NCBI GenBank assembly: GCA_001897755.1
Contig: MKUJ01000003.1
Location: 298,370 to 362,369 of the forward strand
DNA: 64,000 nt
Source: Afipia sp. 64-13
GTDB lineage: Bacteria; Pseudomonadota; Alphaproteobacteria; Rhizobiales; Xanthobacteraceae
Direction: 5' to 3'
Below the pieces are notes generated by a model, which was not told where the DNA came from, did not search any database, and was given only the letters and a program-made list of their open reading frames with translations. This document shows positions 30,562 to 57,299 of this stretch, in pieces (position 1 is the first letter of the stretch; every line of letters begins with the position of its first letter). Made by a program: the position numbers and the translations under genes.

Positions 30562-30563
30562 CG

Positions 30564-32841: not shown

Positions 32842-32881
32842 GCGCTGAGGGATCGTAAGCGCGGGAATCTTGCTACTCTCC

Positions 32882-34183: not shown

Positions 34184-34200
34184 TTCAGCCTCCCCTTATT

Positions 34201-35702: not shown

Positions 35703-35704
35703 GT

Positions 35705-38731: not shown

Positions 38732-38740
38732 ATTTGATTC

Positions 38741-39703
38741 CTATCTAATCGAAACGGCGACGAGTTCGGTCGCAGAAGTGTATGGGTCGGATTCACGACG
38801 CTGCAGGCGATCGGCGATGGACGGCCTGAACTGCGCTGACTCGCGCGCAAAGCGCTCCATCAGGATCGTCTCAGCCGTCTTTTGAAGGCGGAAGTTGGCG
38901 ATCGACGCGCGACGACGAACACCGCCTTCGCCGTCAAAAGCGACGCGGCGATGGTCTTGCAGTGCCTTAATGAGGTCACCAAAGCCTTCGCCGGTGTACG
39001 AACTGACGCCGACGACGCGGGTCTTCCAATCCGATGCGGCCGCCAATCCGACGCCCAAGGTCAACATCTGCTTGATGTCAACTAACGTCTTGTTTGCGTC
39101 ACTTCGATCGCACTTTGACACGACATGAATATCGGCGATTTCCAGCATGCCGGCCTTGATCGCCTGGATCTCATCACCAAGTCCCGGCGCCGATACGACA
39201 ACGGTCGTATTTGACGCCTTAACGATCTCGACCTCATCCTGCCCGACGCCGACAGTCTCGATAATGATTGTATCGAAGCCCGCTACATCGAGGATATCGA
39301 CCGTATCGAGTGTCGCGCGAGCCATGCCGCCGACAGCGCCGCGCGTCGCCATACTCCGGATATATATACCGTCGTCATTCGCCAGGTCGGACATCCTCAC
39401 CCGATCACCGAGGATGGAGCCCCCGGAGTATGGGCTGGACGGATCGATCGCGACGATGCCAACAGTTAAACCACTCTCTCGGAGCCGCGCCGTTAACGCT
39501 GCGACAAGCGTGGACTTTCCGCTACCCGGAACTCCAGTGATACCGATCACATGCGAGCGGCCTGCCCTTTTATAGATCTGAGACAGAGCCTCACGTGCTT
39601 CGGTCGAGCCAGACTCCGCGCGCGACATAAGTCGCCCAATTGCGGCGATTTCGCCGGCCGCAATTCGGTCGACCAACTCTATCGAAGGCACATAACGCGT
39701 CAT
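38741..39703 (-). CDS. MeaB/ArgK-family G3E GTPase, mutase chaperone (MeaH-like in hcm loci)
   Basis: 320 aa with P-loop GVPGSGKST, switch motifs and a VVSKCD (NKxD-like) motif. Confidence 0.85.
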   Translation of the reverse strand: MTRYVPSIELVDRIAAGEIAAIGRLMSRAESGSTEAREALSQIYKRAGRSHVIGITGVPGSGKSTLVAALTARLRESGLTVGIVAIDPSSPYSGGSILGDRVRMSDLANDDGIYIRSMATRGAVGGMARATLDTVDILDVAGFDTIIIETVGVGQDEVEIVKASNTTVVVSAPGLGDEIQAIKAGMLEIADIHVVSKCDRSDANKTLVDIKQMLTLGVGLAAASDWKTRVVGVSSYTGEGFGDLIKALQDHRRVAFDGEGGVRRRASIANFRLQKTAETILMERFARESAQFRPSIADRLQRRESDPYTSATELVAVSIR

Positions 39704-41130: not shown

Positions 41131-41144
41131 GTCCGTAGCTCCAG

Positions 41145-41552
41145 TCAGCGCTCGCCGCGTTCGGAAACGAGGCGATTGAGCGTAGCGACAATGGCTTCCG
41201 GGGGGGTATCCTGGAGAAGAACCTCAGCGACACCCATCTTTTTGAGCTCGACAACGTCTTCGTCGGGCATCACACCACCCGCGACGACAATCATGTCTGT
41301 CGCGCCCTTGCTGCTCAGAAGCGCAAAAATTTTCGGGAAGACGGTGAGCTGCACGCCGGAAAGCAAGCTAACGCCCAAGACATCAACGTCTTCCTGAATG
41401 GCGGCGTTGACGACCTCCTCGGGCGTACGATGCAACCCCGAGTAAATGACATCCATTCCAGCGTCGCGAAGCGTACGAGCTACGACCTTCACACCGCGGT
41501 CGTGACCATCAAGGCCGACCTTCGCCAAAAGCACACGAATAGGTTGCGACAC
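41145..41552 (-). CDS. hcmB: 2-hydroxyisobutyryl-CoA mutase small (B12-binding) subunit
   Basis: 135 aa. It carries the base-off/His-on cobalamin-binding motif in VGLDGHDRG (DxHxxG), then ...SLLSG... and GG motifs. Confidence 0.8.
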   Translation of the reverse strand: MSQPIRVLLAKVGLDGHDRGVKVVARTLRDAGMDVIYSGLHRTPEEVVNAAIQEDVDVLGVSLLSGVQLTVFPKIFALLSSKGATDMIVVAGGVMPDEDVVELKKMGVAEVLLQDTPPEAIVATLNRLVSERGER

Positions 41553-41617
41553 AGTTTCCCCCTCATTATCAATCCGTTTTGGGTTTGAGTTCTGGGTTTT
41601 GTACTCCGCATATCGTG

Positions 41618-41645
41618 TTCAGAACTCTGAATTCAGAACTCTGAA
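41618..41645. promoter_or_regulatory. Two abutting copies of the palindromic 14-mer TTCAGAACTCTGAA; candidate GntR operator in the hcmB / gntR divergent region
   Basis: Read directly at 41618-41631 and 41632-41645. A partial inverted half-site (GAGTTCTG) lies at 41587-41594. The second copy ends at the regulator's ATG. Confidence 0.4.
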
Positions 41646-42361
41646 TGACTCAGGCTTGCGCTGGTGTCAAGCGCGATACATATTGCAGTGCGGAATCAGA
41701 AGAGGATGGCGTGGAGTCTTTAGAAACACCGCGGAGCTTGGTCGACCAAGCCTATGAAGTCATTCTGGATGCCTTGTGCGATGGCACCTTCAAGGCTGGC
41801 GAACGATTGACCCAGGAGGACATTGCCGCACGATTGAACGTTTCGCGTCAGCCGGTGACGCATGCCCTTGCCGTCTTAAAGGCGCAGGGCTTCGTAGCTC
41901 AGGGACGTCGTGGCGTGGTCGTAACGTCGGTTGAGCCCGATTTTTTTAGAGCAATCTATCAATTTAGATCTGCGGTCGAACCTCTCGCAGTACGACTTGC
42001 AACGCCCCACATAACGAAACAAGCAATCGTCCGCGGTCGGTCTTTAGTGGAGCACGGGCGCAATTTAGTTGTCGCTGGAGATAGCAGAGCGACCCTTCAA
42101 GCTGACATCGATTTCCATTCTTTTATTTACGAGCTATCCGGCAATCCGCTTATTTCTGAAACAATGCGATTGCATTGGCGCCATTTGCGGCGCGCTATGG
42201 GCGAAGTCCTTCGTCATCCGGGAATGTCAATAAGCGTCTGGCAGGAACACGGAAGAATTCTTGAGAGCATGATCCGCGGTGACGCCGACGCTGCGTCGGA
42301 ACTAATGCGTCGACACATAATTGATGCGGTTGAGCGAGTTGAGAGGACCGAAGAGCCATAG
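41645..42361 (+). CDS. GntR-family (FadR/FCD subfamily) transcriptional regulator
   Basis: 238 aa with a wHTH (...LTQEDIAARLNVSRQPVTHALAVLKAQGFV...) and an all-helical FCD-like C-terminal domain. The exact start is uncertain. Confidence 0.85.
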   Translation: MTQACAGVKRDTYCSAESEEDGVESLETPRSLVDQAYEVILDALCDGTFKAGERLTQEDIAARLNVSRQPVTHALAVLKAQGFVAQGRRGVVVTSVEPDFFRAIYQFRSAVEPLAVRLATPHITKQAIVRGRSLVEHGRNLVVAGDSRATLQADIDFHSFIYELSGNPLISETMRLHWRHLRRAMGEVLRHPGMSISVWQEHGRILESMIRGDADAASELMRRHIIDAVERVERTEEP

Positions 42362-42652
42362 ATGCCGAGAAAGTCACATCGTATCGACGTCTAAATCACA
42401 GCGATGACTACCGCGCAGGCTCCCGCTGCTCTACCTAAAAGCCCTTGAAGCGAGCGATCAGCATATCACCGAGACGATCGGTCCGGCCGGATAAGGCTTG
42501 CGCTGGAGGTCTTGTTCTTTCGGCGAAACTTGCCTCCAGCAAATCGCGTCTGCAATATCGATCTTGCGCTTTGTCACGGATTCGCCATCCGCAAATGTGA
42601 TTCATTCCCACGAGGTCAAATCGGACGCGGCTTGACCGGGACTGACGCTGGC

Positions 42653-42683
42653 AATTTTTCCGCAATTAGGTAGCAAACGCCAC
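42653..42683 (+). repeat. Left target-site duplication (aatttttc) + left terminal inverted repeat
   Basis: Read directly; see the mobile element entry. Confidence 0.75.
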
Positions 42684-42726
42684 CAGACTGCGATCTCATC
42701 GCCTGACATAATAACCCCATCTATAT

Positions 42727-43176
42727 TTGGGGTTTTTGATGGACGTTGTTCGCGAACTACGCCGCAAGCAGGATGATTTGAGAGCTGACCGCCAGGCACT
42801 GGCCGATCAAATGGCCGAAATCGACGATCAGATCGCGGCGTTCGACACTGTTATTCAGACTTACGAGCCGGATCATCTGCCGGCGAAGAAAAAACCTCGT
42901 CAGAACGGGAAACGCGGCAACTTTCTCGACGGATTGTTCGTAGGCGACAATCTCAACGCGCGCATTCTCAACACGCTGCGACTGGCGCAAACGCCGATTT
43001 CATCGCATGAATGTGCAACCCGCGTCGCTTTGCAAAAAGGTGTCGCGGAGGACGACCCGCGCATCTCCGATATCTCTGGCCGGGTTTCGATCCAATTGTC
43101 CAATCTCGCGAGAAACAACCGGGTCGAGCAGATCAAGGGAGATGGACGAGCCTCTCTTTGGCGGATTGCCGCCTAA
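42727..43176 (+). CDS. Hypothetical coiled-coil + putative winged-helix protein at the transposon left end
   Basis: The ORF starts at TTG 42727, but ATG 42739 (MDVVRELRRKQDDL...) is more likely. It has an N-terminal heptad-rich helix, a basic linker (KKKPRQNGKRG) and a C-terminal segment resembling a wHTH. Its stop codon interlocks with the transposase stop (cCTAAc). Confidence 0.5.
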   Translation: MGFLMDVVRELRRKQDDLRADRQALADQMAEIDDQIAAFDTVIQTYEPDHLPAKKKPRQNGKRGNFLDGLFVGDNLNARILNTLRLAQTPISSHECATRVALQKGVAEDDPRISDISGRVSIQLSNLARNNRVEQIKGDGRASLWRIAA

Positions 43177-44183
43177 CCCCGCCAGACGAAATCGAAATCT
43201 TTCGGCTTGTTGCCTTGGAAGTAGCCGCAGAGATTCCGGGACGTCGGGTGCATTAGAGAGCGCACGAGCATCTCCATCGTAAGTCGCCGATTGCCTTTGC
43301 GACGAAGGTCTTCGCGCCACGCAAGCTCTGCTGCGTACCAGTCGAGATACTTGACCGAAAATCGGTGATGGATTCCGCGGTACGATCGCCGGACACGCGA
43401 GAAGAAGCTCTCGATGATGTTGGTCGATACGCCTTCACCATGCGAGAACGCCTTGGAGTGGTTCACACGCGTGAGCGGATTCAGGCCGCAAAGTTCGTCA
43501 TAGGCCAGATGTTCGTCGGCATAGACGTGAGCTTCGCGGCTCACATGAGACTTAACCAGATCCCAGGCGCAGTTGGCGTTCTCGGACTGTGTTACGCGCG
43601 TCACCGTTTGCCCGCGCCATCCGCGCTCACGCACGGCCATAACGACGACGCGTTGCGGTGTCTCGATCGTACGTCGATCCACACGATCTTCCTTGCGGTT
43701 TTCCTGACGAACAAATCCTAACAAATACATGCCGTCGATCTCGACTTCACCGTCGAGCAGCATGTTTCCGCGACGGGCTGCCAGAGCCTCTCGCAACTTC
43801 ATCAGGTTCAACCAAGCCGTTTTATTTTGGACTCCCAGCTCGCGTGCGACCTGCAGTGCAGCCTTGCCCTTCGCGCCGTTTGCCGACATGGCGATGATCG
43901 CAAGAATCTGCCTGAACATGAGCTTCCGGCTGGCGAAGAGCGTTCCGCTCGTGACCGTGAACTCCTTCTTGCATTCCTTGAAGGAACACTTGAAGCGACG
44001 GCCGCGTGCCAACTCATAGCACCGTACGTTGCCGCACTCGGGACAAACCGGTTCGCCGTTGGTCAGGGGCCAACGCGCACGCTTGAACAAGCGATACGCG
44101 CCGGGTTCGGTCATTCGCATGACCTTCTGGAGCGGCAGATCGCGCGCGTCCTTGGAAAGGAGGAAATGCTGTCCCATCAGCAC
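43173..44183 (-). CDS. IS1595-family DDE transposase (N-terminal zinc ribbon + ISXO2-like DDE domain)
   Basis: 336 aa with the zinc ribbon CPECG...FKCSFKECKKEF, an HTH region (…GKAALQVARELGVQNKTAWL…) and a DDE core (…EIDGMYL…, …YADEHLAY…). Confidence 0.85.
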   Translation of the reverse strand: MLMGQHFLLSKDARDLPLQKVMRMTEPGAYRLFKRARWPLTNGEPVCPECGNVRCYELARGRRFKCSFKECKKEFTVTSGTLFASRKLMFRQILAIIAMSANGAKGKAALQVARELGVQNKTAWLNLMKLREALAARRGNMLLDGEVEIDGMYLLGFVRQENRKEDRVDRRTIETPQRVVVMAVRERGWRGQTVTRVTQSENANCAWDLVKSHVSREAHVYADEHLAYDELCGLNPLTRVNHSKAFSHGEGVSTNIIESFFSRVRRSYRGIHHRFSVKYLDWYAAELAWREDLRRKGNRRLTMEMLVRSLMHPTSRNLCGYFQGNKPKDFDFVWRG

Positions 44184-44497
44184 CTCCCCCGAGGGGAAGC
44201 CAGATGGTCAGCGTATGGACCAGCCCCCGACCGAAGTCGTCAGAGCAGCACCTTGATAATGATGATGGGAAACCATTGAATACCTCGTTCTTGCACACAC
44301 CGCAGTAATTTGCGTGGCGAACGAGCGTTTCCGGATCAGACGGCCCCAAGCATAGCCGGGACGCGTGCATGAAAACGGCGGTCTGTCCGCTCGCCACGCA
44401 AATCTATGGCTATGTGAGAACGATAGGTCATGGCGGCCTCTTATCCGGGATGCCCGGTCAGATCCAGACTGCGAAGGATTCAACGTAAGCGTGATGC

Positions 44498-46600
44498 TTA
44501 CGAAGCTTCGTCAATTTTAGTCGCAGTTTCAGCAATCAGGCGGAGTCTGGGCTGACGAAGAAGGATTTCCCGAACCTCGTCTCCGGAGAGCGGCCGCTCC
44601 ATCAATTGCTCGGCAAGGTATTCAACCGCCTCGTGCTGCGATCCGATGATCCGCCGCGCGACGTCGAGTTGTTTGGCGAGAATGGCCTCGACGCGCATCC
44701 GCAAATCACCGTTGGTCCGAAGGCTGGCCAGCAAGTCCGCATCACTACGCGACGACAGGTAGGTTAATCTCCCGCCAAGACCGACGCTGGCCTCCATGAG
44801 GACGGCCTTGATCGTCGCCAGATAGAGATCGGTCCCGGGACCACCCCCGGCGCCGTCGGAACGACACCCCAGAAAGATTTCTTCGGCGGCAATGCCTCCA
44901 AGGAGGACGGCAATGTCGGCCAGGTAGGTTTCGTGGGTGCAGTCGTAGGTCGTGATCGGCATTGCGCGGACACCGCCTGCGATGCTGGTTTTACCCCGCT
45001 CAATTTGGGTCGCGATGGCCGCAACCAGAACCATGTCGAAGCCGATTTCCGTGATAACGGCGGCATGGCCAGCCTCGTGGATGGCCGCCCGCCAGCGCGA
45101 GTCCTCGGGAATGTCGATCATTTCTGGAAGCGATGCCAAGACATCCTCAATGACCATCTCCCGGCGTTCCTGCCGGGCGCGTCGGCGGGCCTCGCGGGCA
45201 AGACGTTCCAGATCGGCGCCGCTGGTGCCGTTGGTCCGCTCGATGACCTCGGACACTCCGACATCGGCCAGTGCCCCGCGCAGATGCCATCGCAAGATGC
45301 CCTCACGGGCCGACGCATCCGGCAATGGAATCTCGATGGTGCGGTCGAGCCGTCCGGATCGGGTCAGCGCCTTGTCGAGGCGACCGGGGTGGTTGCAGGC
45401 ACCGATGACCACGACGCCTTCCCGAGACTCGGCGCCATCGATGCATTCCAGCAGCGCGGCGACGACCTCGGTCGAGTATTGAGCATAATCGCCATCGAAA
45501 CGTTCGCGATCACCGACCGCGTCGATTTCGTCCAGAAACAGGATACTCGGCGCTTTGCTTTTCGCTTCATCGAAGGCGGAGCGCATGGCTTTGAGCATGT
45601 CCCCGAGATGTCCTCGAGCTTGCCACCGCGCGATGCTGCCGAGGACCAACGGTACGCCGCAGGTCTTCGCCAAAGCCTTCGCGTAGGTGGTCTTGCCCGT
45701 TCCGGGAACGCCATGAAGCAGTACTCCGCGATCGACGTCGCTCCATGGCAACGTGCCATTGGCCCACGCTTTCAGGTCCACGGCCAGGTCCTGTCCCCAA
45801 CTGCCAGCTTCGCCAAGACCGTGCATGTCATCCAGCAACGGCACGGTGTCGTCGCCTCTGGATGTGTCGGATTTGGGTTGCGCGGCCTTCAGGCGTTCCA
45901 ACCGCTCCAGCACCTGACGAAGGGATCGTCCCCGACGAATGGCCGCACCGATCATCGAGGCCGGAGCCTGCATCAGCAAATCGAGCGATGCGGAATCCGG
46001 CACCTGGCCCAGCGTCAGGCGGCAAGATGCTTCGACATGACGTCGTGTCGGTCCTTCCATCGTGACGACGGCGTCGGCGGCGGCGATCAATGCGTCCGGC
46101 GTGGCGTCAATGCTGGAAACGATGATCAGCAAGCGCGACTTTCGAAGAACCGAAATTACGTCAGCTTCTCCGAGGATCGGTTGCGAACCCGGACGGCGCT
46201 TGCCCGCGAGGTTCAAAACTTCATAGGTGTTCCCGCGCGAGACCCGTTCCGCGGCATCACCGATGTCAGATGGCGCCATGCCGTCCGCAATGACGACCAC
46301 GACGATCGCAGGCAGGCCCAGACGCACATAAGGCTCATGGCGAAGCGCGCGTGCCAAACAGCAATGCGCGAGGAACTTCGTGGCGTTCGCCTTGAAGATT
46401 TTCAGCAGACTGGAACGGGCGTCCGGGGAATGGAAAGACAAACTTGGCATTGAAAATACCGATGCTTGGAAAGCGCACCGCAACGGGTGCAGACATCGGG
46501 CAGGACGACGGCGTGCGCAGCCGTAGAGCGTCAAAACGCTCTCAACACGGCTCGAATTGGCAATGGATGGTTGGAATATCTTCACCGCATGCTGAATCAT
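44498..46600 (-). CDS. Soluble FtsH-like protein: unknown ~270-aa N-terminal region + AAA+ ATPase + M41 zinc metalloprotease, no TM helices
   Basis: It has Walker A GVPGTGKT, Walker B ILFLDEID, the second region of homology ...TRSGRLDR and the HEXXH site AIHEAGHAAV. The maximal ORF starts at 46600, but that part overlaps a non-coding repeat. MPSLSF... at 46453 is the more likely start. Confidence 0.8.
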   Translation of the reverse strand: MIQHAVKIFQPSIANSSRVESVLTLYGCARRRPARCLHPLRCAFQASVFSMPSLSFHSPDARSSLLKIFKANATKFLAHCCLARALRHEPYVRLGLPAIVVVVIADGMAPSDIGDAAERVSRGNTYEVLNLAGKRRPGSQPILGEADVISVLRKSRLLIIVSSIDATPDALIAAADAVVTMEGPTRRHVEASCRLTLGQVPDSASLDLLMQAPASMIGAAIRRGRSLRQVLERLERLKAAQPKSDTSRGDDTVPLLDDMHGLGEAGSWGQDLAVDLKAWANGTLPWSDVDRGVLLHGVPGTGKTTYAKALAKTCGVPLVLGSIARWQARGHLGDMLKAMRSAFDEAKSKAPSILFLDEIDAVGDRERFDGDYAQYSTEVVAALLECIDGAESREGVVVIGACNHPGRLDKALTRSGRLDRTIEIPLPDASAREGILRWHLRGALADVGVSEVIERTNGTSGADLERLAREARRRARQERREMVIEDVLASLPEMIDIPEDSRWRAAIHEAGHAAVITEIGFDMVLVAAIATQIERGKTSIAGGVRAMPITTYDCTHETYLADIAVLLGGIAAEEIFLGCRSDGAGGGPGTDLYLATIKAVLMEASVGLGGRLTYLSSRSDADLLASLRTNGDLRMRVEAILAKQLDVARRIIGSQHEAVEYLAEQLMERPLSGDEVREILLRQPRLRLIAETATKIDEAS

Positions 46601-46666
46601 CCCGCCCGGATTAGGCGGTTCTTGGGGATCAGTGTATGCAGCGGTGGAATTTCATGGCGAGAACGT
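46547..46666 (+). repeat. Copy 1 of a ~120-nt dispersed direct repeat (upstream of the FtsH-like gene)
   Basis: By manual alignment it matches 50382-50505 at roughly three quarters of positions. There are long identical runs (cgaattggcaatg; gctgaatc.tccc.cccgg; tggggatcag; cggtggaatttcatgg.gagaacgt). Confidence 0.7.
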
Positions 46667-46769
46667 ATAGGGAACGATTGAGCGTCCGTCAATCCCTTCG
46701 TGTCTATCAGGAAGCAGACGCTCCTCCGATAAACTTCCCAGATGGTAAGGTATTCGTGCGTCATCGCGT

Positions 46770-48401
46770 CTACCAAGCGTAAGTACTGTTGGCACCTGAC
46801 GCGATTCCAGAGACACCGCTGGTCAGACCAACGACCTGAACAGGCGTTGATCTGTTCGTCGTCGTAGTGTCGCCGAGTTGGCCGCTGTTGTTGCTTCCCC
46901 AGCACTTCGCTCCACCGGAGACAATAGCGCAGGTATGGTTGTCGCCTGCTGCGATAGCGGTAACTCCACTGGTCAGCCCAGCAGAAACCGGAGATGTCGT
47001 CCACGTCACGGCCGTGTTGCCGAGTTGGCCGCTGTTGTTGCTTCCCCAGCACTTCGCTCCACCGGAGACAATAGCGCAGGTGTGATAGGTACCGGCGGTA
47101 ATTGAGGTGACACCGCTGGTTAGCCCGGAGACCTGAACCGGTGCTGTCCTATTCGTCGTGCTACCATCACCGAGTTGACCACCGCTGTTGCTTCCCCAGC
47201 ACTTCACGGCTCCGCCGGAGACGATGGCGCAGGTGTGGCTGTCGCCTGTCGCGATCTTGGTGACACCACTGGTTAGCCCAGAGACCTGGACCGGAGACGT
47301 CCTGTTCGTCGTGCTACCGTCCCCGAGTTGGCCGTTGCCATTGTATCCCCAACACTTCGCCCCACCGGAGACAATAGCGCAGGTGTGATAGGAACCTGCC
47401 GCGATCGAGGTAACTCCACTCAGCCCCTGCACTTTAACCGGAAGCAATTTATTTTCAGTGGTCCCAATGCCGAGTTGGCCGTAGCCGTTAAATCCCCAGC
47501 AATCGACGGTCCCGTCAATTGCAAGACCGCAGGCATGATAAATCCCTGCGGCAACCTGCTTGTAGGTCTTTCCGCCGAGAACAGGGGCAGATGTACTTCT
47601 GTCGATCTTGGTTCCATCGCCAAGTTGGCCGCTGCTGTTGTATCCCCACGCCATCACGTTCGAAGGCGGCAACGTGTTTTTCAGAGAAAACACGCCGCTT
47701 GTCGCTTCGGTTTCGTCGAAGTCATCCTTGACCTTGACGGTGAGGTTCTCGAGCGAACACACATCGGTCGGCGTTCCGGAGATCTTGCCGTCCGTTGCCG
47801 AGAACGACAGGCCCGGGCATTGCGTGCCGAAGTCCGTCATCGGTGCCGACGATTGCATCAGCGTATAAGTAGCCGTGTCGACAAGCCCCTTTAAAACGTA
47901 AGCTGGCTGCGCATCCAGCGCCGTGTTGACCGTTCCCTTGATCTCTCCGGCAGGACCGCCAGTGATCGCAAGGATGGGGTGAACCGTAACGGACGCAGAT
48001 CCGGCCGTCACCGTTTTGACCCCCTCGCTCGCCGTGGCGGTCACCTGAAAGGTGATCGGGTCTTCCACGGTTGGCGCGGTCGCGGTGACGCCGCCTTCGA
48101 CGGTCGCGAACCCGATAGATGGCTCTGCGGGCGTCTGCGTGAACGACCACGAGGGAGTTGTCAGCGTCGAATCCAGCGTTCCAGAGATCGTCGTTCCTGC
48201 ACGGTATTTGTCGGCCACGAAACCGAAGGATGCGGACGCCGGAGTCTCGGGCGATGTGTCTTCGCCGCCGTTGTCGGGATTCCCGGAAACATCCGAAACA
48301 GGGCTGCCCTTGCTGCGGAAATAATAGCTGTCAGCCAGGGCCGATGCCGACAGGGCGATGGAGAAAACGGCCGTCGCCAGCAAGATCGCCTTCGAGTTCA
48401 T
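46770..48401 (-). CDS. Secreted RCC1-repeat (beta-propeller) protein with N-terminal Ig-like/beta-rich region
   Basis: 543 aa with a signal peptide (MNSKAILLATAVFSIALSASALA). At least six or seven RCC1 blades carry the motif (C/A)WG.N..GQLG(D/N) and HTCAIVSGGAKCWG. Confidence 0.8.
   Translation of the reverse strand: MNSKAILLATAVFSIALSASALADSYYFRSKGSPVSDVSGNPDNGGEDTSPETPASASFGFVADKYRAGTTISGTLDSTLTTPSWSFTQTPAEPSIGFATVEGGVTATAPTVEDPITFQVTATASEGVKTVTAGSASVTVHPILAITGGPAGEIKGTVNTALDAQPAYVLKGLVDTATYTLMQSSAPMTDFGTQCPGLSFSATDGKISGTPTDVCSLENLTVKVKDDFDETEATSGVFSLKNTLPPSNVMAWGYNSSGQLGDGTKIDRSTSAPVLGGKTYKQVAAGIYHACGLAIDGTVDCWGFNGYGQLGIGTTENKLLPVKVQGLSGVTSIAAGSYHTCAIVSGGAKCWGYNGNGQLGDGSTTNRTSPVQVSGLTSGVTKIATGDSHTCAIVSGGAVKCWGSNSGGQLGDGSTTNRTAPVQVSGLTSGVTSITAGTYHTCAIVSGGAKCWGSNNSGQLGNTAVTWTTSPVSAGLTSGVTAIAAGDNHTCAIVSGGAKCWGSNNSGQLGDTTTTNRSTPVQVVGLTSGVSGIASGANSTYAW
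46872..47400. repeat. 147-bp (49-codon) tandem repeats encoding RCC1 blades, two units sharing a 63-nt identical stretch
   Basis: 46872-46934 is identical to 47019-47081. More diverged units follow at about 47166 and 47316. Confidence 0.75.
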
Positions 48402-48439
48402 ATGCGCACCCTTTTCCTATAAGGGTGCGACGATCGGGC

Positions 48440-48508
48440 CGCCGGCGCAACTTCGCCGGCGCAATCGTGCAACGCGGTTTCACCTCGGCAATGACGAGAT
48501 GAAACCGC
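48440..48508 (-). terminator. Two hairpins directly after the GmrSD-like stop codon (putative terminator)
   Basis: One stem is gcggtttca/tgaaaccgc (48474-48508) and the other is a GC stem cgccggcg/cgccggcg (48440-48461). Neither has a clear U-tract. Confidence 0.3.
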
Positions 48509-50277
48509 TATTTGGCCGCGACCAACATGGGTACTGAACCTCCAAGCAGATCCACCAGCTTCTTCCGGAGTCGATCTCGCCGAGCGGCATAGAAGGCTTC
48601 GAACCCCTCAAGATCAGCAGGCAGGTCGCCCAGTTCATGCTTGGTGCGATAATGGACCTGAGATGTTGCATCAGGCAAATGCGTCGATAGCCAAGCTGTC
48701 GGTAGCGCTGCCTTTTTCTCGTTGTTAATGGCACCTTCAAGCAATTGAAGGTTCGGCAACGTGTTTGCGTGCTGGGCCATGACTTCGGCCTCCGCAGCGC
48801 TGAATCCCTGCTTCTGTAGGCGCGCTGGAGTGAACCTTGAAATCGGGTAGACATGATCGACGTGAAACTGGTTACGGAGGTCAACAAACGGGAAAAGGAG
48901 AGACAGCAGCGGAAATGTTCTCTTGTCGCCGTACTCGAGATGCAAAAGATCTTCGATCTCGGCAGGTTCGAACGTCAGAGACTTGCCACGCTGGCTCATG
49001 GCTTGCCGCAACTGTTCGACAGGAAATGCTTCTCCCGGGGCCGCCTGCAATACCTCGCGAAGCGCCGTTAAGAGCGTATCGAGACCACTTCCCCAAATGC
49101 CAGAAGCCTTGACGATGGACTTGACCAACCAATCCTTGATCGCCTCGCGATCATTCGCGAATTGGCTGTGAGTCACGTAGTTGGCGGGCGCGTTGCGCTT
49201 GTAGAGATAATAAGCAATCGGCAATAGCGCGCTGTCCGCCTTCAAGGTCTGCCCGTTTAAACCGAAGCTGGAGGCGAGTTCGACGGTTCGGACCAGAGCC
49301 GACCGAATGGAAGGCCAGTTCGATTCCAAAGCCAGCATGTTGGCGGTTGTGAAATTCTCGACCTTGAATCCGACGGACGCAATATCAGCCAGCATGAGGC
49401 CAGCCTTCAAAACGAAATCCTGACTGAGTACGAACCCTGTTCCGATACGGTTCAGATCATCGACCAGCTTATGGATTTCGGCACGCGCATCGACATGCGT
49501 CCATTGTGCGACGGCGATACTCAGAAGCAGGTCCGAATAGGACAGGATCGTTCCACCCGAATTCAACCGAATGAAAATATTGAGTACTCGCTCGAGATCC
49601 TGTGCTTCTTCCTCATAGTAATTGATGAGGTTGTGGGAGTGTACCACGCGGTGAAGACGGTCGAGTATTGCGTAAGCTCCCTGCAGAGCGTCACCCTGAA
49701 GCCCTCGCTCCATCAGTGTCGCCAGCATCGCAGGACCATCTTTCATGCCAAGGATATTAGGCACCTTGAACCAGTGGGCTTTTTCGTCTCGCTCGACCTG
49801 TCCATCGTCCAAAAACTTGAAACGATACCTCACCCCGTCTTCGTCGGGCGTGGGCGAAGCCAGCAAATCCAGATGTAGCGTCCGGATGGGAAAAGCGTCG
49901 GGGTTCGTCCACCATTTATTTGGCTGCTTGATCGCCATCGCGCCTCTGAGACCGATGTTCAAGGCAGTCAGGCGCTGCTGCCCGTCCAAGACGGCAGTTA
50001 CGCTCTGGTGTTGAAGTATCCCGATTTCCGGACAGTGGGCGGCATCACGTTGATGGTAGTTCAGGACAAAATCATAGAATTTGAATTTTCCACCGGTCGG
50101 GGCCTCGACCTTCCAGAATAAGAAGGTCCCGAACGGATAGCCCTGCATAAGGCTGTCAAACAGTCGTTCGATCTGTTCTGGCTTCCAGACAAACTCCCGT
50201 TGAATCGCTGGGAGTACGTAGCTCTTTGTTTGTATACGCCCCAGCGCCTCGGCGATGGTGCCGCCCGGTTTATACAT
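48508..50277 (-). CDS. GmrSD-family type IV (modification-dependent) restriction-like enzyme: DUF262 (ParB-like NTPase) + DUF1524 (His-Me finger nuclease)
   Basis: 589 aa. The N-terminal motifs are LPAIQREFVW and DGQQRLTAL. The C-terminal motifs are HVDHVYPIS and ...NLQLLEGAINNEK. Confidence 0.8.
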   Translation of the reverse strand: MYKPGGTIAEALGRIQTKSYVLPAIQREFVWKPEQIERLFDSLMQGYPFGTFLFWKVEAPTGGKFKFYDFVLNYHQRDAAHCPEIGILQHQSVTAVLDGQQRLTALNIGLRGAMAIKQPNKWWTNPDAFPIRTLHLDLLASPTPDEDGVRYRFKFLDDGQVERDEKAHWFKVPNILGMKDGPAMLATLMERGLQGDALQGAYAILDRLHRVVHSHNLINYYEEEAQDLERVLNIFIRLNSGGTILSYSDLLLSIAVAQWTHVDARAEIHKLVDDLNRIGTGFVLSQDFVLKAGLMLADIASVGFKVENFTTANMLALESNWPSIRSALVRTVELASSFGLNGQTLKADSALLPIAYYLYKRNAPANYVTHSQFANDREAIKDWLVKSIVKASGIWGSGLDTLLTALREVLQAAPGEAFPVEQLRQAMSQRGKSLTFEPAEIEDLLHLEYGDKRTFPLLSLLFPFVDLRNQFHVDHVYPISRFTPARLQKQGFSAAEAEVMAQHANTLPNLQLLEGAINNEKKAALPTAWLSTHLPDATSQVHYRTKHELGDLPADLEGFEAFYAARRDRLRKKLVDLLGGSVPMLVAAK

Positions 50278-50381
50278 TGGCCCCCGCAGAATCTCTTTGA
50301 TGAAAGCTCTATTTTAACGCGTCGCGTTCCGCTGACCAGCCCGAAAAGATGGCTTCCTGCGGACGTCAACGCGCCCGCAAA

Positions 50382-50505
50382 ACGGTTCGAATTGGCAATG
50401 TGACGTCGTGGATACGTTTCTCCGCGCGCTGAATCGTCCCACCCGGCTTTGGGGAGGTCCCTGGGGATCAGGGTATGTATCGGTGGAATTTCATGGTGAG
50501 AACGT
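50382..50505 (+). repeat. Copy 2 of the ~120-nt dispersed direct repeat (upstream of the GmrSD-like gene, overlapping the annotated 5' end of the CoiA-like ORF)
   Basis: See copy 1. It has the same orientation and a similar distance (about 100-230 nt) from the start of the minus-strand gene to its left. Confidence 0.7.
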
Positions 50506-52468
50506 GAACATTCTCGCGCTTGTCACCCCTTTGTGTCGAAAGGGAATCGGACGATTCTCCAATGGAATCCAGAACAGCAGAGCGACCGTGACCCAGCACG
50601 TACCTCCCAGATACTCGTCCAAGGATGCCAATCTCGTCTACGGCGTCGATACCCTTGGCGTGATGCGACATATCTCCGAGGTCGAACGGGGAGACGCGTG
50701 TGGATGCACTTGTCCTGCCTGCAACGCGCCTCTGACCGCAAGAAAAGGCCAAGATAACGTCCATCACTTTGGACATCAGGCCTCCACTTCTTGTTCGAAC
50801 GCTCCGGAAACAGCGTTGCATAGGCTTGGAAAGGAGATCGTAGCGACGAAGTTGCTCCTCGTTCTTCCGGAGGTCAGAGCAGAATTCAATGGCGAGGCCG
50901 ACATCCTTCACAAGGCTGGGCCAGTCTCATTCGACAAAGCAATCCAAGAAGCGCGACATCTCCAGAACGTGGTGCCGGATCTTTATGTCGAACGTGACGG
51001 ACACCGCCTGCTTGTCGAGATTTACGTCACCCACGCGTGCGACGAATTGAAACGCGCGGAACTAAAGAATCGAGGCATTGCCACGGTCGAGATCGACTTG
51101 TCACGCCTTCCCAGGAATGCATCGCGCTCCGAGGTTGAAGAAGCCGTCTTCGAGAAAGCTAGGCGCTATTGGGTTTTCCACCCCAAGATTGATGCCGCAA
51201 TCACGGCAATGCACACGCGGCATCAATCCAAGCTGGACGCGCAACGCCTTAAATTCGAGAAGGAAGTTGCAGACTGTCTACGTCGGTACGATGTCGGCTT
51301 GAAGGAATTGGCAAACCGCAAGGTGGAGCCACCCGATGAGGATGGAGAATTCTTCCGCATTGGGTTGGGGACTCATATCGGATGCTCCGTAGGTGGCGCG
51401 GGCGGATTTCTTGTAACCGAGCGGGAATGGCAATTTGCGATCCTTCGGACCTTCCTGCCGGAAGACGCGCAACCCTTACCCTATCGGCTGAAGGCCTTTT
51501 TCGACTGGCTCAAGAAGCAGCAGTGGATTCGAGCGGGATTCCAATACATCCGTCCCGAACTCGAAGACGCCGTGCGTGGTCAGAATGACCAGTTCCGAAG
51601 TCCGTACCGTGCCGTCGAAGCCTATCTCGACCATCTTGTTGAGAGAGGAATTCTCCAGAAGCATCGATCGTATTCACTTTCCACCAATCTGCTCGATGAG
51701 CTTCTTGATCTCCGCGCCATCGATCAACGCAAGACGTCCCGCAGAAAAAGCCTATCTGAACGCATCGAAAAGATACTGGGATGTATTCCGGATCGTGAGC
51801 GTGGTGATCTGACCGCCAAATCGTGGATGACGTTGCCGCAGAATGGAGGAAAATCATTCGACGCCGTCATCGAAGACGACGATGAGGTTTTCGACGACAT
51901 GATCGTTCCCTTGCGAAAGATTGAGGCGATGATGTTCCGGAACGGCCCATCGGTCTTTCAGACACTTGGTTTGCCGATAGAGCATGAACAAGAACGCCAG
52001 ATGGAGGCACGAAGGCTGGAAGCCGAGGCCAAGGAACTGGAGAAGGCCGAAGCATTGAGGAAAGCCGCAGAGGAGCGCGGAAAAACTCTTGCATCCATCG
52101 CTTCAGAGCATGGTCCCGAATGGACATCTTTAATCGAAACGCCGCACCCGGCTTTCAATGGGAAGACGCCGCTGGCGACCGCGATTGAAGGAGTAGATGG
52201 CCTGAACCAAGCCCTGATATTCCTGCAAGGCGCACTCGATAAACGCGCTCGTGAACGGTCAGAAGCTGAAGAAGTACACCGATGGCTTATGGCGCTGGAG
52301 CATCAAGCGATCACAATATTGAGCGACATGGCACGACCATTCCTGAAGTCGCCTTATCCGTTGGGGCCGCTTGGAAAGAAATTCAGGCCTTGGGACTACT
52401 GCGTATCGGAAGCGACTTTCAAGGAATGCGTCGAACTTGCCAAGGGCTTGCTGAAGAAGCGGCGATAG
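50408..52468 (+). CDS. Large hypothetical protein with CoiA-like N-terminal module (zinc ribbon + HF.H + PD-(D/E)xK-like nuclease core) and ~450-aa helical C-terminal extension
   Basis: The N-terminal module reads GCTCPACNAPLTARKGQDNVHHFGHQ...C...ETALHRLGKE, then VVPDLYVERDGHRLLVEIYVTH, like the competence protein CoiA family. The first ~35 codons of the maximal ORF (GTG 50408) lie inside the dispersed repeat. The real start is probably downstream (TTG 50531 or GTG 50588). Confidence 0.6.
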   Translation: MDTFLRALNRPTRLWGGPWGSGYVSVEFHGENVNILALVTPLCRKGIGRFSNGIQNSRATVTQHVPPRYSSKDANLVYGVDTLGVMRHISEVERGDACGCTCPACNAPLTARKGQDNVHHFGHQASTSCSNAPETALHRLGKEIVATKLLLVLPEVRAEFNGEADILHKAGPVSFDKAIQEARHLQNVVPDLYVERDGHRLLVEIYVTHACDELKRAELKNRGIATVEIDLSRLPRNASRSEVEEAVFEKARRYWVFHPKIDAAITAMHTRHQSKLDAQRLKFEKEVADCLRRYDVGLKELANRKVEPPDEDGEFFRIGLGTHIGCSVGGAGGFLVTEREWQFAILRTFLPEDAQPLPYRLKAFFDWLKKQQWIRAGFQYIRPELEDAVRGQNDQFRSPYRAVEAYLDHLVERGILQKHRSYSLSTNLLDELLDLRAIDQRKTSRRKSLSERIEKILGCIPDRERGDLTAKSWMTLPQNGGKSFDAVIEDDDEVFDDMIVPLRKIEAMMFRNGPSVFQTLGLPIEHEQERQMEARRLEAEAKELEKAEALRKAAEERGKTLASIASEHGPEWTSLIETPHPAFNGKTPLATAIEGVDGLNQALIFLQGALDKRARERSEAEEVHRWLMALEHQAITILSDMARPFLKSPYPLGPLGKKFRPWDYCVSEATFKECVELAKGLLKKRR

Positions 52469-52485
52469 ATAATCAAAATTATCTA
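52466..52485. terminator. 8-bp perfect AT-rich hairpin (tagataat-caaa-attatcta) spanning both convergent stop codons
   Basis: Read directly. The TAG of the CoiA-like gene (52466-52468) and the TAG of the GIY-YIG/alpha-CTD gene (complement of 52483-52485) form the two ends of the stem. Confidence 0.35.
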
Positions 52486-53439
52486 TTCTGAAATCGAAAA
52501 GGATGCCTCTGCGAGCCACTGAGCAAGGTCCATGCCGAGATGCAGGCCTGACAGGGCGAGCAATTCCTTGATTTCATTGAGCGCCTTCCGCCCGAAATTT
52601 GGCGTTCTGAGCATCTCGGCTTCGGATTTCTGCACCAGTTCGCCGACATAGTTGATCCCATCGTTCTTTAGGCAGTTTGCCGATCTGACAGACAACTCCA
52701 ATTCGTCGGTGCGTTCGAGAAGTTTGCCTGCCTGAAGCGACAGAAGCTCGATGTTCGGTGGGGGCCAGCCCGTGACGGATAAGCCGAGATGTAGCCCGAC
52801 CTGTGCCAAAATCTCTTTCAATTCATTCAGTGACTTGCGTCCGAAGTTCGAGGTTCGGAGCAGTTCGGCTTCTCCCTTTTGCGCGAACTCGCCGACGTAG
52901 CGGATGCCTTCATTATTCAGGCAATTGTAGGTGCGTACCGAAAGTTCGAGTTGGTCGATATCTCGAAGAAGATGGATTGATGGCGGGATTCCGACGGGAG
53001 GAACGTAGGGCAACGGATCAGGCGGAGGTGGCGTCCAGCCGAATTCGTAATCACTCGACCGCCAGGATGTTGTGGCGCTCGCGCGTTGCGCATCATCTAG
53101 AAACTCAGTCAGCGCCTCCACAGCAATACCAAATCGACAATTGACGATCTCACGACCTTTTTGCCGATGGCCTTCTTTATTGTACATGCGCAATTGACGA
53201 TATCGCTTTAGGCGACGGCGGGCATCGTGTTCGACCCGTCCGCCCTCATCGACCCAGACATAATAGAGCAGAACCCAGTCGTCGATGCTGCCGTAGGCAG
53301 TTCTGCGGAGCCGTCTTTCTTGCTGTCGGATGTTCACGGTCGTGCCGATTTTGAGGACACGATGAGACAGCGACCCTGCTATGTAGACATAACCGGAACC
53401 GTAATATCTATCGCGGAAAGTATCCGACCAGTCATCCAT
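52483..53439 (-). CDS. GIY-YIG/T5orf172-like domain fused through a Pro-rich linker to two tandem RNA polymerase alpha-subunit C-terminal domains (alpha-CTD)
   Basis: 318 aa. Residues ~14-112 read GYVYIAG...LKIGTT...RQQERRL...GREIV. Residues ~156-231 and ~238-305 each read (D/E)LELSVR(T/S)(Y/A)NCL(N/K)N(E/D)GI.YVGE..QK.EAE(L/M)LRT.NFGRK.LNE(L/I)KE.LA..GLHLG. That is the alpha-CTD helix-hairpin-helix sequence nearly motif for motif. Confidence 0.8.
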
Positions 53440-53472
53440 CTGGTGTTCTCAGCAATAAGATTGTGGCGTCTG

Positions 53473-54309
53473 TCACGGTCGAAGCTGACCTGAAACACTC
53501 GATTGCAATTTCTGACTGATCAATTTCGCCAATTCAGCAATCGTATTGAGCATTAATTCCCGCATCTTCAGATCATCGGAATATGTCAGTCGCAGTTTCA
53601 GACAGTGCGACCCAAGCATCGCAATCCCGGCGATAGACATGTCTTCTCCGATAAGGAAGTGCTGCAATACAAACGGCTCGGCGACGTGAACAGGCCATGG
53701 TGTCTTTGCATCGGGATGTGCGGCTAGGACTTGATTGCAAACCAATTGCAGTTCTCGTTCTCTGATCTCGCTGGAAGAGGCTCCCTCCATTCGTCCGTCC
53801 GCTGCGCCATAGATATAGATTGCGGCCTTTGCACCCAGCGCGGAGTACAACAGTGAGGTGTCAAGAATGGCATCGCCCTGGCTGTTGTCGATTGTACCAT
53901 CAAAATGAAGCCACCCGATTTGCGAGGGGGCGCAGAATGCGATTCGTGGGTCGGACCATTCAATCAGAGGCGCGGAGGCGTCTGGCGTCCCGTCAACGTG
54001 ACTTACATCGAAATATAGAGAGCGAACCTCTGAAACGATCTGATCTTGTGTGAACGCGACCGTTTCAATTCGAAGCTTCTGTATCGTTGACACAACTTCC
54101 GGAACAGCTTCAGATTCCAATAGCCGCCACAGTTCCTGTCTTCCCCGCCCAAGGCCACGAAGGAGATTTAACTGCGTTCGGGTTGCATACCTCGAAGAAC
54201 ACGGCTCGATAACGAATGGATCTGCAATCCGGCCGCTGCCCCCTCGTATGAGAACATCGATCCCAAAATCAGCCTTGAGGGCTTCGCGGATAGTCATTGC
54301 TCTGGTCAT
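53473..54309 (-). CDS. Hypothetical protein, first gene of the two-gene module with the GIY-YIG/alpha-CTD protein
   Basis: 278-aa ORF, co-oriented with and 33 nt upstream of the next gene. I recognise no motif. The transposon right IR lies ~130 nt upstream. Confidence 0.55.
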   Translation of the reverse strand: MTRAMTIREALKADFGIDVLIRGGSGRIADPFVIEPCSSRYATRTQLNLLRGLGRGRQELWRLLESEAVPEVVSTIQKLRIETVAFTQDQIVSEVRSLYFDVSHVDGTPDASAPLIEWSDPRIAFCAPSQIGWLHFDGTIDNSQGDAILDTSLLYSALGAKAAIYIYGAADGRMEGASSSEIRERELQLVCNQVLAAHPDAKTPWPVHVAEPFVLQHFLIGEDMSIAGIAMLGSHCLKLRLTYSDDLKMRELMLNTIAELAKLISQKLQSSVSGQLRP

Positions 54310-54438
54310 CCCGGCAGGTCTTCGGGATGCCAGTGTACAGATGATTTGGTGTTGGGGAGATGCGTCGTCGATCTAACGAGGGATTCAAACTTCGAAAGAG
54401 AAAATATGTAATTGAATCAGTTATTTATGCGCGATTTT

Positions 54439-54469
54439 GTGGCGTTTGCTACCTAATATCGAATTTTTC
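54439..54469 (-). repeat. Right terminal inverted repeat + right target-site duplication (aatttttc)
   Basis: Read directly; see the mobile element entry. Confidence 0.75.
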
Positions 54470-55536: not shown

Positions 55537-57299
55537 GTGTTGATGCCCGCCCGCATCCAATTTCTTTCATCAAACGAAAAGGACGTCCAGTTGACGACCG
55601 ATACCTCCGTGCGTTCCGATCTTCCTTCCTCCTCTCCGGCGGTGACCCGTGTTGTCTCCTACCTTCGCGTCTCGACCGGCCGGCAGGCTGAGAGCGACCT
55701 GTCGATTCCCGACCAGCGTCGTCAGATCGAGCGCTATTGCGCCGCTCGCGGCTGGACGATCGTGGAAGACTATGTCGAGCCTGGCAGCAGCGCGACGGAC
55801 GATCGGCGCCCGGCCTTTCAGCAAATGATCGATGCGGCCTTGGTCAGGCCGCCGGCATTCAGCACGATCCTCGTTCACAGCTTCTCGCGTTTTTTCCGCG
55901 ATCAGTTCCAGTTTGAGCGCTATGTCCGCAAACTCGCGAAGAACGGCATGCAGGTCATCTCGATCACCCAGGACCTAGGCGACAATCCGATGGGCATGAT
56001 GATGCGCCAGATCGTGACCCTTTTCGACGAATATCAGTCGAAGGAAAACGCCAAGCACACGCTACGCGCCATGTGCGAGAATGCCCGGCAGGGCTACTGG
56101 AACGGCGCCCGGCCGCCTGTCGGCTATCGCACGGTGGCGGTCGAAAAGCGGGGTTCGAAAATCAAGAAGACGCTGGAGATCGATCCGCTCCACGTCGGGA
56201 CGGTACGGCTGATCTTCCGACTTGCGCTTGAAGGCGCCGATGGCAGCGGCCCGATGGGCGTGAAGGCGATCACGCGCCTTCTCAATGAACGCGGCATTCG
56301 TACGCCGAATGGCGGGCGCTGGGGCCTGTCGCAGATCCACACCATCCTGACCCGCCCCACCTACATCGGCGAACATCGCTTCAACCGTCTTGAGGCCCGT
56401 ACCAAACAACGCAAAGCAAAGATGGAACACGCCATCATGTCCGTGCCGCCGCTGATCGCCGAGCATGACTTCAACGAAGTCCAACGCCTGCTCCAATCAC
56501 GCAATTTCAAAATGATGCACCCACAGGCTGTCGGCGGACCGATATTGCTCACCGGAATTTGCTTCTGTGCCTCGTGCGGCGGCGCGATGACCCTTCGCAC
56601 CGGCAGGGGCAGCACAGGACGATCGTATCGCTACTACACCTGCTCGACCCGAGCGCGGCGGGTCGAACAGGATGCCAGGGACCGGCGGTCCCGATGGACC
56701 GGCTGGACGACGCCGTGATCGACTTCCTCCGCTCGACGCTGCTCGCTCCCAAACGGATCGAGACGTTGATGACCCCGCTTATGACACATCGTGAAGACTG
56801 GGCGGATCGTCGGCGCCAGCATGTTGTTGAGTTAAGAGCGCAGGTGGATGAGGCAGAGCGCAAGCTCCGAAATCTGTATGAAGCCGTCGAAAACGACATG
56901 CTTGCCAGTACAGATCGGATGTTCAAGGAGCGCATCGCCCAACTCTCCACCCGCCGGGAGCAGGCAGAGACCGAAGCTGATCGCGTCGAGGCAATGGTGA
57001 TCCGGACAGGCCCTATGCTGTCTATGCAGGACGTGATCCGTATGGCGAAGGATGCGCGGATGAGATTTCAGACGGCCGGTAAACCGCCTCGTCAAATCAT
57101 CCGGACACTGCTCCAGCGGGTGGAGGTTGTTGGCAAGGATGAAGCTCGCGTGGAAGGATCGCGAGACGGACTACTGAAGGCGATCGCCTCTACAACCGGT
57201 AACAGGGCGATCATGACGGCAGGCGCTGGTGGGTTGAGCTGGCATCTGGCTGCCCGGGAGGGCATGGAAGATGCCTATGTTTTCTGTGTAGCGATGTAG
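55537..57299 (+). pseudogene. Large serine recombinase (resolvase domain + recombinase domain + zinc ribbon + coiled coil) interrupted by a frameshift near 56650-56690
   Basis: Frame 1 gives VVSYLRVSTGRQ...(catalytic Ser)...CASCGGAMTLRTG...YYTCSTRA and then runs into nonsense and a stop at 56718. The -1 frame continues with ...GCQGPAVPMDRLDDAVIDFL... and a coiled coil to 57299. The probable start is GTG 55642. This could also be a sequencing error. Confidence 0.75.

Follow-up and report, generated by a model that had tools for sequence, protein, structure and literature searches.

The T5orf172 nuclease Odn (origin-directed nuclease, ICP1 Gp88) takes its specificity from a captured RepA DNA-binding domain (PMC8263062). 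In T5orf172 homing endonucleases, a terminal nuclease is combined with modular, often repeated and exchangeable DNA-binding domains (PMC10448857). Here we describe a gene of 318 amino acids (aa), hereafter the fusion, in a 64,000-nt stretch of the Afipia sp. 64-13 genome (the window). The gene joins a T5orf172 domain to two tandem copies of the C-terminal domain found in the alpha subunit of RNA polymerase (alpha-CTD). We tentatively read it as a chimera derived from a homing endonuclease gene (HEG) and carried as island and transposon cargo, in which the tandem alpha-CTD would tether the T5orf172 head to A/T-rich, UP-like DNA.

The fusion resembles Odn in being a single-gene chimera of an HEG-type T5orf172 domain and a DNA-binding domain that was captured elsewhere and would retarget the enzyme. 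Odn takes part in a conflict of genetic elements, E180 of Odn corresponds to E70 in the window protein, and Foldseek pairs the two structures, though at modest E-values. However, the domain captured by Odn is RepA_N, is N-terminal and comes from the target element, whereas that of the fusion is a tandem alpha-CTD, is C-terminal and comes from the host RNA polymerase. Likewise, Odn keeps its Arg (R148) and is phage-encoded, while the window protein has a Gln and is cargo of a chromosomal island. The T5orf172 homing endonucleases of phages (ICP1, T5-like phages and others) share with the fusion a terminal nuclease, DNA-binding repeats arranged as 'beads on a string', module exchange and frameshifted copies (PMC10448857). 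These phage enzymes use CapR, DUF723 and DUF4397 zinc fingers and lie in phage genomes near essential genes, whereas the fusion uses alpha-CTD, lies in bacterial islands, where its site is not constant, and has lost the canonical Arg. I-TevI of phage T4 also connects a catalytic head through a flexible linker to a DNA-binding module that contacts the minor groove, and it can repress without cleaving. It differs in belonging to another GIY-YIG subfamily, in having an unrelated DNA-binding domain, in being intron-encoded and in possessing R27, which is essential.

The initial annotation of the window named no described system with this architecture, and none came to light: no paper linking T5orf172 with alpha-CTD was found in the literature searched, and PADLOC holds no model of it. 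The design principle is known; what is new is the domain that was captured, its occurrence in tandem, its recurrence and an active site without the Arg. If our reading is correct, a selfish-nuclease lineage borrowed the DNA-reading tail of the host polymerase twice as a targeting module, and the borrowed module stayed RpoA-like over long evolutionary time. The principle of Odn would then extend from phage-satellite conflict to bacterial islands and a core transcription domain, and the fusion would represent a natural tandem binder of the minor groove of A/T tracts.

Domain architecture and origin of the fusion

The 318-aa open reading frame (ORF) was initially divided into a GIY-YIG/T5orf172-like module, a Pro-rich linker and two tandem modules; Pfam and re-translation agree with this division. 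Re-translation recovered in place the peptides quoted in support, namely the linker, the two CTD copies and the GWPPPNIE tail behind copy 1. The parts are as follows.

52483..53439, minus strand: fusion gene, 318 aa, T5orf172 + linker + two alpha-CTD (ORF list, Pfam)
53035..53409, minus strand: T5orf172 domain (GIY-YIG superfamily), N-terminal, aa 11-135 (Pfam PF10544, alignment to Odn/gp121, Foldseek)
52969..53034, minus strand: flexible Pro-rich linker, aa 136-157, 22 aa (translation, dip in model confidence)
52774..52968, minus strand: alpha-CTD copy 1, aa 158-222, 66% identity to the Bradyrhizobium RpoA CTD
52720..52773, minus strand: inter-repeat segment with an RpoA-type C-terminal tail, aa 223-240 (comparison with the Bradyrhizobium rpoA 3' end)
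52525..52719, minus strand: alpha-CTD copy 2, aa 241-305, 80% identity to the Bradyrhizobium RpoA CTD

Pfam placed T5orf172 (PF10544) at aa 16-107 with 26.9 bits (cut-off 20; relatives score up to 47 bits) and found RNA_pol_A_CTD two times (E 2.4e-46). A confident AlphaFold model built on 18 family members had a mean predicted local distance difference test (pLDDT) score of 86, with a dip (67-70) only in the linker, the sequence and length of which differ among family members. When the full-length model was compared with the PDB by Foldseek, RNA polymerase chains dominated the matches. The best was Caulobacter alpha-CTD on AT-rich DNA (9zum, 78% identity, root-mean-square deviation 0.6 A), which, together with the two Pfam hits, bears out the identification of the tandem modules as alpha-CTD. 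Against viral predicted structures, the model gave dozens of T5orf172/GIY-YIG matches (probability ~1.0, but E of only 2e-3 to 4e-2), including a Rhizobium phage endonuclease and Odn itself, besides phage alpha-CTD proteins. A profile sequence search of the N-terminal domain (N-domain) against the PDB returned spurious TPR matches only.

The tandem modules share with the RpoA alpha-CTD the fold, 66-80% identity (to that of Bradyrhizobium), the residues R265, N268, C269, N294, G296 and K298, and the GWPPxNIE tail that follows the CTD. Unlike RpoA, the fusion has no alpha N-terminal assembly domain, carries its CTD in tandem and has relaxed many RpoA-invariant sites. In Pfam the CTD alone was matched, with no match to the RpoA N-terminal dimerisation/assembly domain (PF01000, PF01193), and the absence of this domain argues that the fusion is not a polymerase subunit. 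An RpoA paralogue was ruled out by NCBIfam: the rpoA models reach the fusion by their C-terminal ends only and score below their cut-offs (best equivalog 231 bits against 302). In RefSeq, the only name given to the family is 'RNA polymerase subunit alpha C-terminal domain-containing protein'.

A profile search with the N-domain only yielded 986 representative clusters, 658 of them at E <= 1e-10. The architectures among the best 150 of the 986 were counted.

77: Zn-ribbon-like module (C..H..HCxQC, ~75 aa) + T5orf172 (Zn-T5)
34: T5orf172 alone, many partial
12: Zn-T5 with another C-terminal extension
5: T5orf172 + one alpha-CTD
6: T5orf172 + two alpha-CTD
1: T5orf172 + three alpha-CTD (P0214; P0041 is another)
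1: Zn-T5-alpha-CTD hybrid (P0220, Pfam-confirmed)

Alpha-CTD is therefore carried by 13 of these 150 representatives, the hybrid included. In a neighbour-joining (NJ) tree of the T5orf172 domain, the Zn-less alpha-CTD forms made up one clade with no Zn members within it, while the hybrid P0220 stood elsewhere, among the Zn-T5 proteins. From this separation, capture of alpha-CTD took place at least twice, and in the lineage of the window alpha-CTD replaced the Zn module. No conserved neighbour gene was found for the Zn-T5 relatives; a 39%-identical one is located on a viral contig of IMG/VR. Within this T5orf172 clade, some further members carry housekeeping fragments: P0222 has a Tubulin/FtsZ GTPase domain (E 3e-19) before Zn-T5, whereas IF2_N domains are found in P0189 and P0303. 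Such combinations may be genuine or may be gene-calling artefacts.

Alpha-CTD copies, active site and proposed function

As a reference for the two copies we used 80 genuine alphaproteobacterial rpoA loci, all of them returned by a genome-collection scan with the full-length fusion alignment (one of its two patterns came from alpha-CTD). They comprise 52 distinct CTD sequences, in which 55 of 63 sites are at least 90% invariant. Retention of the RpoA residue was 0.94 in copy 2 and 0.88 in copy 1 at the DNA-contact sites, compared with 0.77 and 0.55 at the 261 (sigma-contact) determinant and 0.79 and 0.68 at the other RpoA-invariant sites. DNA-contact residues are the best-kept class of alpha-CTD positions. 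Equivalents of the UP-element contacts R265, N268, C269, G296 and K298 had been noted in both copies, and this is true of the window protein. Across the family, copy 2 retains R265 and C269 in 100% and N268 in 96%, while copy 1 retains N268 in only 56% and is the more relaxed of the two. The relaxed RpoA-invariant surface positions are K256, E259, N274, I278, D280, V306, M310 and H313. In the Caulobacter structure, the same DNA-contact residues read the narrowed minor groove of AT-rich DNA (PMC13004042).

The inter-repeat tail GWPPPNIE compares with GWPPENIDEL at the 3' end of Bradyrhizobium rpoA. An RpoA-type tail between the copies shows that the duplicated unit was the CTD plus tail, and thus that the whole rpoA 3' end was captured. 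Identity at third codon positions was ~0.5 to Bradyrhizobium rpoA and 0.37 between copies 1 and 2; at these low values, capture and duplication are old, and selection has held the protein sequence RpoA-like. Recent gene conversion with rpoA was ruled out by the value of ~0.5; synonymous sites are saturated against rpoA. In the comparison of the CTD copies with rpoA that the initial annotation envisaged, the identities to the Bradyrhizobium RpoA CTD were 66% and 80%, and the NJ tree of these 65-aa sequences was too poorly resolved to date the duplication. A DNA-binding role is favoured by the way residues are retained, by a copy number that varies and by the exchange of alpha-CTD for the Zn module.

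Alpha-CTD-like domains occur in other proteins as well. PglW of type 2 BREX, a defence protein, has an alpha-CTD-like helical domain after its enzymatic modules, and this domain has been read as its nucleic-acid-binding part (PMC12839542). The likeness is local and weak (E 4.5e-6, ~50 residues), and PglW is a 1400-aa kinase/STAND protein of a multi-gene system. Stand-alone alpha-CTD proteins of phages (IMG/VR; 'RNA polymerase, alpha subunit, C-terminal' in BFVD) indicate that mobile elements capture alpha-CTD repeatedly; unlike the fusion, they hold only one copy, lack T5orf172 and are joined to different modules, such as a helix-turn-helix (HTH) resembling sigma region 4. On IMG/VR viral contigs (L086-L129) we observed many single alpha-CTD-like domains in proteins of 86-334 aa. 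A recurrent type of ~290-330 aa combines an unknown N-terminal domain, alpha-CTD and a C-terminal HTH like sigma-70 region 4 (e.g., L109:5794-6663, L112:1604-2497 and L119:542-1420) and looks like a phage transcription-hijack factor.

The initial annotation offered three options for the fusion: a bait or decoy, a targeting module or a transcription hijacker. The second, in which alpha-CTD as an A/T-tract module aims T5orf172, fits the comparative evidence best. According to this tentative model, the fusion would stem from a T5orf172 homing-endonuclease lineage that exchanged its zinc-ribbon module for two host alpha-CTDs together with the RpoA tail. Like the pair of alpha subunits in RNA polymerase, the two alpha-CTDs would each take one subsite on A/T-rich DNA resembling an UP element and bind there in the narrowed minor groove. 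The flexible Pro-rich linker would let the T5orf172 head reach nearby DNA, which it would most likely nick or cleave; if inactive, the head would occupy the site. In a host of ~62% G+C, A/T tracts would mark promoters and A/T-richer incoming DNA, so that the fusion would most likely be a stand-alone factor in inter-genome conflict, analogous to ICP1 Odn. We infer A/T-tract binding, action on DNA and this biological role from the comparisons.

The active-site columns were assigned by aligning the family profile to Odn and ICP1 gp121 (both from HQ641347), the motif spacing being ungapped. Y19 is the Tyr of GIY, and K30-I31-G32 form the KIG motif; Y19, K30, E70 and E97 are invariant among the fusions. 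E70 aligns with the catalytic Glu E180 of Odn (E75 of I-TevI); all 66 fusions and all 98 Zn-T5 relatives have it. The E180A mutation of Odn abolishes cleavage (PMC8263062). The column of the canonical catalytic Arg (I-TevI R27, Odn R148; eight residues after the Gly of KIG) holds Q40 in the window protein, and the 'R' in the motif string first quoted for GIY-YIG is not the catalytic one; the absent Arg contradicts the standard GIY-YIG active site that had been assumed. All 98 Zn-T5 relatives have the Arg, and a few early-branching fusions (P0185 and P0198) retain it, so that the loss must postdate the origin of the fusion. R74 and R96 are both present in 74 of 82 sequences without R40 and in 1 of 122 with R40, an association confounded by shared ancestry, and their fixation could represent a relocated catalytic Arg. 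Either the guanidinium group has moved or canonical cleavage is gone. Cleavage by the fusion is uncertain because the canonical Arg is missing while the catalytic Glu is invariant. If our reading is correct, this loss under ongoing selection would provide a tractable case in which to ask if a GIY-YIG-type domain can move a catalytic residue or take on another role.

Several observations weigh against our reading. The catalytic Arg occurs in 0 of 66 close fusions (Gln in 53, Tyr in 12, Glu in 1), and cleavage may have been lost or become non-canonical in this clade. Of the folds originally assigned, alpha-CTD was recovered, and T5orf172 was recovered by Pfam, but Foldseek of the N-domain against the PDB gave nothing significant (Slx1 at rank 43, E 2.3), and the stand-alone N-domain model has only moderate confidence (pLDDT 69). 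The 287 (activator-contact) determinant is retained at 0.93 in copy 2 and 0.80 in copy 1, near the level of the DNA-contact residues, so that the alpha-CTD copies could bind protein. Isolated alpha-CTD binds DNA weakly and with low specificity. No PHROGs family matches the fusion protein, and a defence role, drawn only from the neighbourhood, is unproven.

The missing Arg is in keeping with the third option, according to which the fusion would be a catalytically dead, domesticated DNA binder that sits on promoters or UP-like elements in competition with the polymerase's own alpha-CTDs. Such a transcriptional interference or hijack factor of a mobile element would resemble I-TevI in its autorepression. 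It would suit a clade in which the Arg column never holds Arg and in which the loss followed the fusion while purifying selection went on. It would also suit the sigma- and activator-contact residues of window copy 2, which are identical to those of Bradyrhizobium RpoA. T5orf172 was first annotated as a DNA-binding domain, and there are documented cases in which parts of homing endonucleases were domesticated or moonlight as regulators (PMC8096241). However, the catalytic Glu, Y19, K30 and E97 are invariant, although an inactive scaffold would need them less. Moreover, the loss of R40 coincides with the fixation of R74 and R96, a possible relocated Arg, and the 261 determinant is relaxed across the family. 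We regard a dead binder as unlikely.

The resemblance to host RpoA could be understood differently, as that of an integrated decoy or guard: the tandem alpha-CTD would bait phage factors that bind or ADP-ribosylate alpha-CTD, and engagement of the bait would switch on a non-canonical T5orf172 effector. That phages attack alpha-CTD is well known (PMC7824862). Copy 2 is still 80% identical to the host RpoA CTD despite saturated synonymous sites, retention of the 287 determinant is good, the gene lies in a defence island, and the same T5orf172 clade contains the IF2_N and FtsZ/tubulin GTPase fragments, which, if the decoy were real, would point to a family of 'housekeeping-domain bait' sensors. 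Against a bait, many RpoA-invariant surface positions have relaxed and the DNA contacts are the class that is kept best, and a range of one to three copies with substitution for a Zn ribbon is expected of a DNA-binding module rather than of a bait. In addition, the presumed effector is without its catalytic Arg, and no phage partner is known. No specific support for the decoy option emerged, and we consider it quite improbable.

Spread, selection and surroundings of the fusion family

The homologue search found ~100 clusters with the fusion architecture at 48-100% identity; the few named ones belong to Bradyrhizobium, Nitrobacter and Rhodopseudomonas, and the rest are mostly metagenomic. Compared with a 90%-identical copy, at which substitutions are unsaturated, the ratio of nonsynonymous to synonymous substitution rates (dN/dS) was 0.12 (N-domain), 0.10 (CTD1) and 0.11 (CTD2). 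The fusion is under strong purifying selection. Frameshifted or truncated copies exist (P0089, P0092, P0044 and L139), while the intact copies are under purifying selection.

To compare neighbours, the ORFs around 18 independent fusion loci were clustered all against all, and no neighbour gene was common to more than 4 of the 18 loci. An RNase_T-like exonuclease, whose position varies, was the most frequent (4 loci), followed by SRAP (3 loci). The loci at L001:7168-7902, L004:2514-3245 and L197:1550-2284 have in common a backbone in which the SRAP gene comes after two small ORFs (~125 and ~150 aa) and which may be a common Bradyrhizobium island backbone with the fusion at differing positions. 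In every case the context was a variable region with many genes for defence, repair or mobility, including patatin with CBASS, gasdermin, Vsr/Dcm with AAA_15, DndB, and FRG/DUF2971 with an HNH helicase. The mobile or defence-island setting given in the initial annotation is right, but its 'defence system' stays an association; PADLOC-DB v2 recognised neither the fusion nor the ORF next to it, apart from a partial match of the fusion to PglW through alpha-CTD.

Neither the full-length fusion in PLSDB plasmids nor the N-domain in isolated-phage records had a match. On one PLSDB plasmid (NZ_CP150953.1, Yoonia sp. BS5-3, 16.5 kb), positions 16018-16257 contain an unannotated alpha-CTD-like coding stretch that is 65% identical to the query CTDs.

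These distributions bear on whether the fusion is an active, classical HEG that spreads via cuts at its cognate empty site. The HEG-like architecture, the sporadic distribution and the presence of some frameshifted or truncated copies are in keeping with such a life cycle. Nevertheless, hardly any two loci have the gene in the same place, and no flanking gene is constant; phage records and PLSDB plasmids do not contain it, and in the window it probably travels as cargo of an IS1595-type transposon. Together with the strong purifying selection and the missing catalytic Arg, this makes a classical HEG very unlikely.

The 278-aa ORF, the transposon and the island

The fusion had been annotated as one half of a two-gene module whose other half is the following ORF.

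53473..54309, minus strand: 278-aa ORF, co-oriented with the fusion and 33 nt upstream of it (ORF list, junction read)

The coordinates and profile searches agree with the original description of this ORF as co-oriented, 33 nt upstream and without a recognised motif: its product had no match in Pfam, NCBIfam, PADLOC, PHROGs or the PDB, the last also when searched with a 19-sequence profile. From the spacing, the two ORFs are probably co-transcribed in the window. However, a tblastn search with the 278-aa protein over all fetched N-domain loci found it in the window and L130 only. In L130 the homologue has an in-frame stop (DNS*GDA), while the adjoining fusion, with an N-terminal domain 99% identical to that of the window, is intact. 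No 278-aa gene accompanies the 90%-identical fusion P0002, where a divergent HNH-DEAD helicase lies upstream, or the 86%-identical P0003, with unrelated genes upstream. It is likewise absent from 9 further informative fusion loci, and in three Bradyrhizobium/Rhodopseudomonas genomes the genes upstream of the fusion have no similarity to it. All contigs with an identical fusion show the same island, the pair included, and thus represent one lineage sampled many times.

The 278-aa family itself comprises ~50 clusters, none of them annotated. Its diverged homologues (P0160 and P0131 among them) have other contexts with no fusion gene nearby, being located either among insertion sequence (IS) elements or in an operon with genes for Methylase_S-like, QueC-like and family A DNA polymerase proteins. 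In L208 (4979-12743), L209 and L210, the homologues, with overlapping start and stop, belong to a conserved gene string consisting of Methylase_S-like, the 278-aa homologue, 106 aa, 258 aa, a 639-aa QueC-like protein, 219 aa, family A DNA polymerase and 135 aa. Such a string could represent an uncharacterised module for DNA modification or replication.

An obligate two-gene defence system would accord with the co-orientation, the 33-nt gap with no promoter-like site in between, and the recurrence of the pair in L130 and in every contig of the window's lineage. It is at odds with the stop in the L130 partner beside an intact fusion, with the absence of the partner beside the 90%- and 86%-identical fusions and the 9 further loci, with the unrelated, fusion-free contexts of P0160 and P0131, and with the dissimilar genes upstream of fusions elsewhere. 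Since the 278-aa ORF is not co-conserved with the fusion, we place it outside the system, and it should not count as a partner in annotation. The two-gene module is thus largely refuted by the comparative data and seems exceedingly improbable: the pair is not kept across diverged loci. As judged from comparative sequence data, the 318-aa fusion gene is the entire functional unit, a free-standing single gene.

Both ORFs lie within an 11.8-kb unit (42665-54457) that is bracketed by inverted repeats, with a transposase at one end.

42665..42692, no strand: left terminal inverted repeat of the putative IS1595-type transposon, 28 nt
43173-44183: IS1595 transposase
54430..54457, no strand: right terminal inverted repeat, 28 nt, 86% complementary to the left arm

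The remaining cargo comprises an FtsH-like AAA/M41 protease (IetA-like by PADLOC), a 543-aa RCC1-repeat protein, HEC-05/GmrSD (E 3e-224) and a 686-aa CoiA_N protein. Outside the transposon ends lie 12-nt direct repeats, AATTTTTCCGCA and AATTTTTCTGCA, which differ in one base, the right one being offset by 4 nt; because of this difference and offset, the target-site duplication is not clean. Carriage of the fusion by the transposon, as first proposed, is plausible from the transposase, the inverted repeats and the near-identical direct repeats, even though the latter are no clean duplication. The neighbourhood described earlier was found in full: GmrSD/HEC-05, the CoiA_N protein, GajA/GajB, QatB/C/D and the IS1595 transposase.

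The G+C content is ~0.54 over ~28-55 kb of the window compared with 0.62 elsewhere. In the low-G+C stretch from 28000 to 42400 are genes for a thiamine pyrophosphate (TPP) enzyme, a FecCD-type ATP-binding cassette (ABC) transporter, a major facilitator superfamily (MFS) transporter, 3-hydroxyacyl-CoA dehydrogenase, cobalamin adenosyltransferase, methylmalonyl-CoA mutase with MeaB, an AMP-binding enzyme and a GntR regulator. Given this metabolic cluster, the acquired region seems larger than its defence part. A direct repeat of ~140 nt (84-87% identity) occurs at 46529-46666 and 50364-50505, with one copy each at the 5' ends of the minus-strand AAA-protease gene and the plus-strand CoiA-like gene. 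Beside the island, at 55537-57299, a large serine recombinase is broken into a pair of overlapping ORFs (393 and 246 aa). Related contigs show this split too (391 and 201 aa), and the gene is probably a frameshifted pseudogene.

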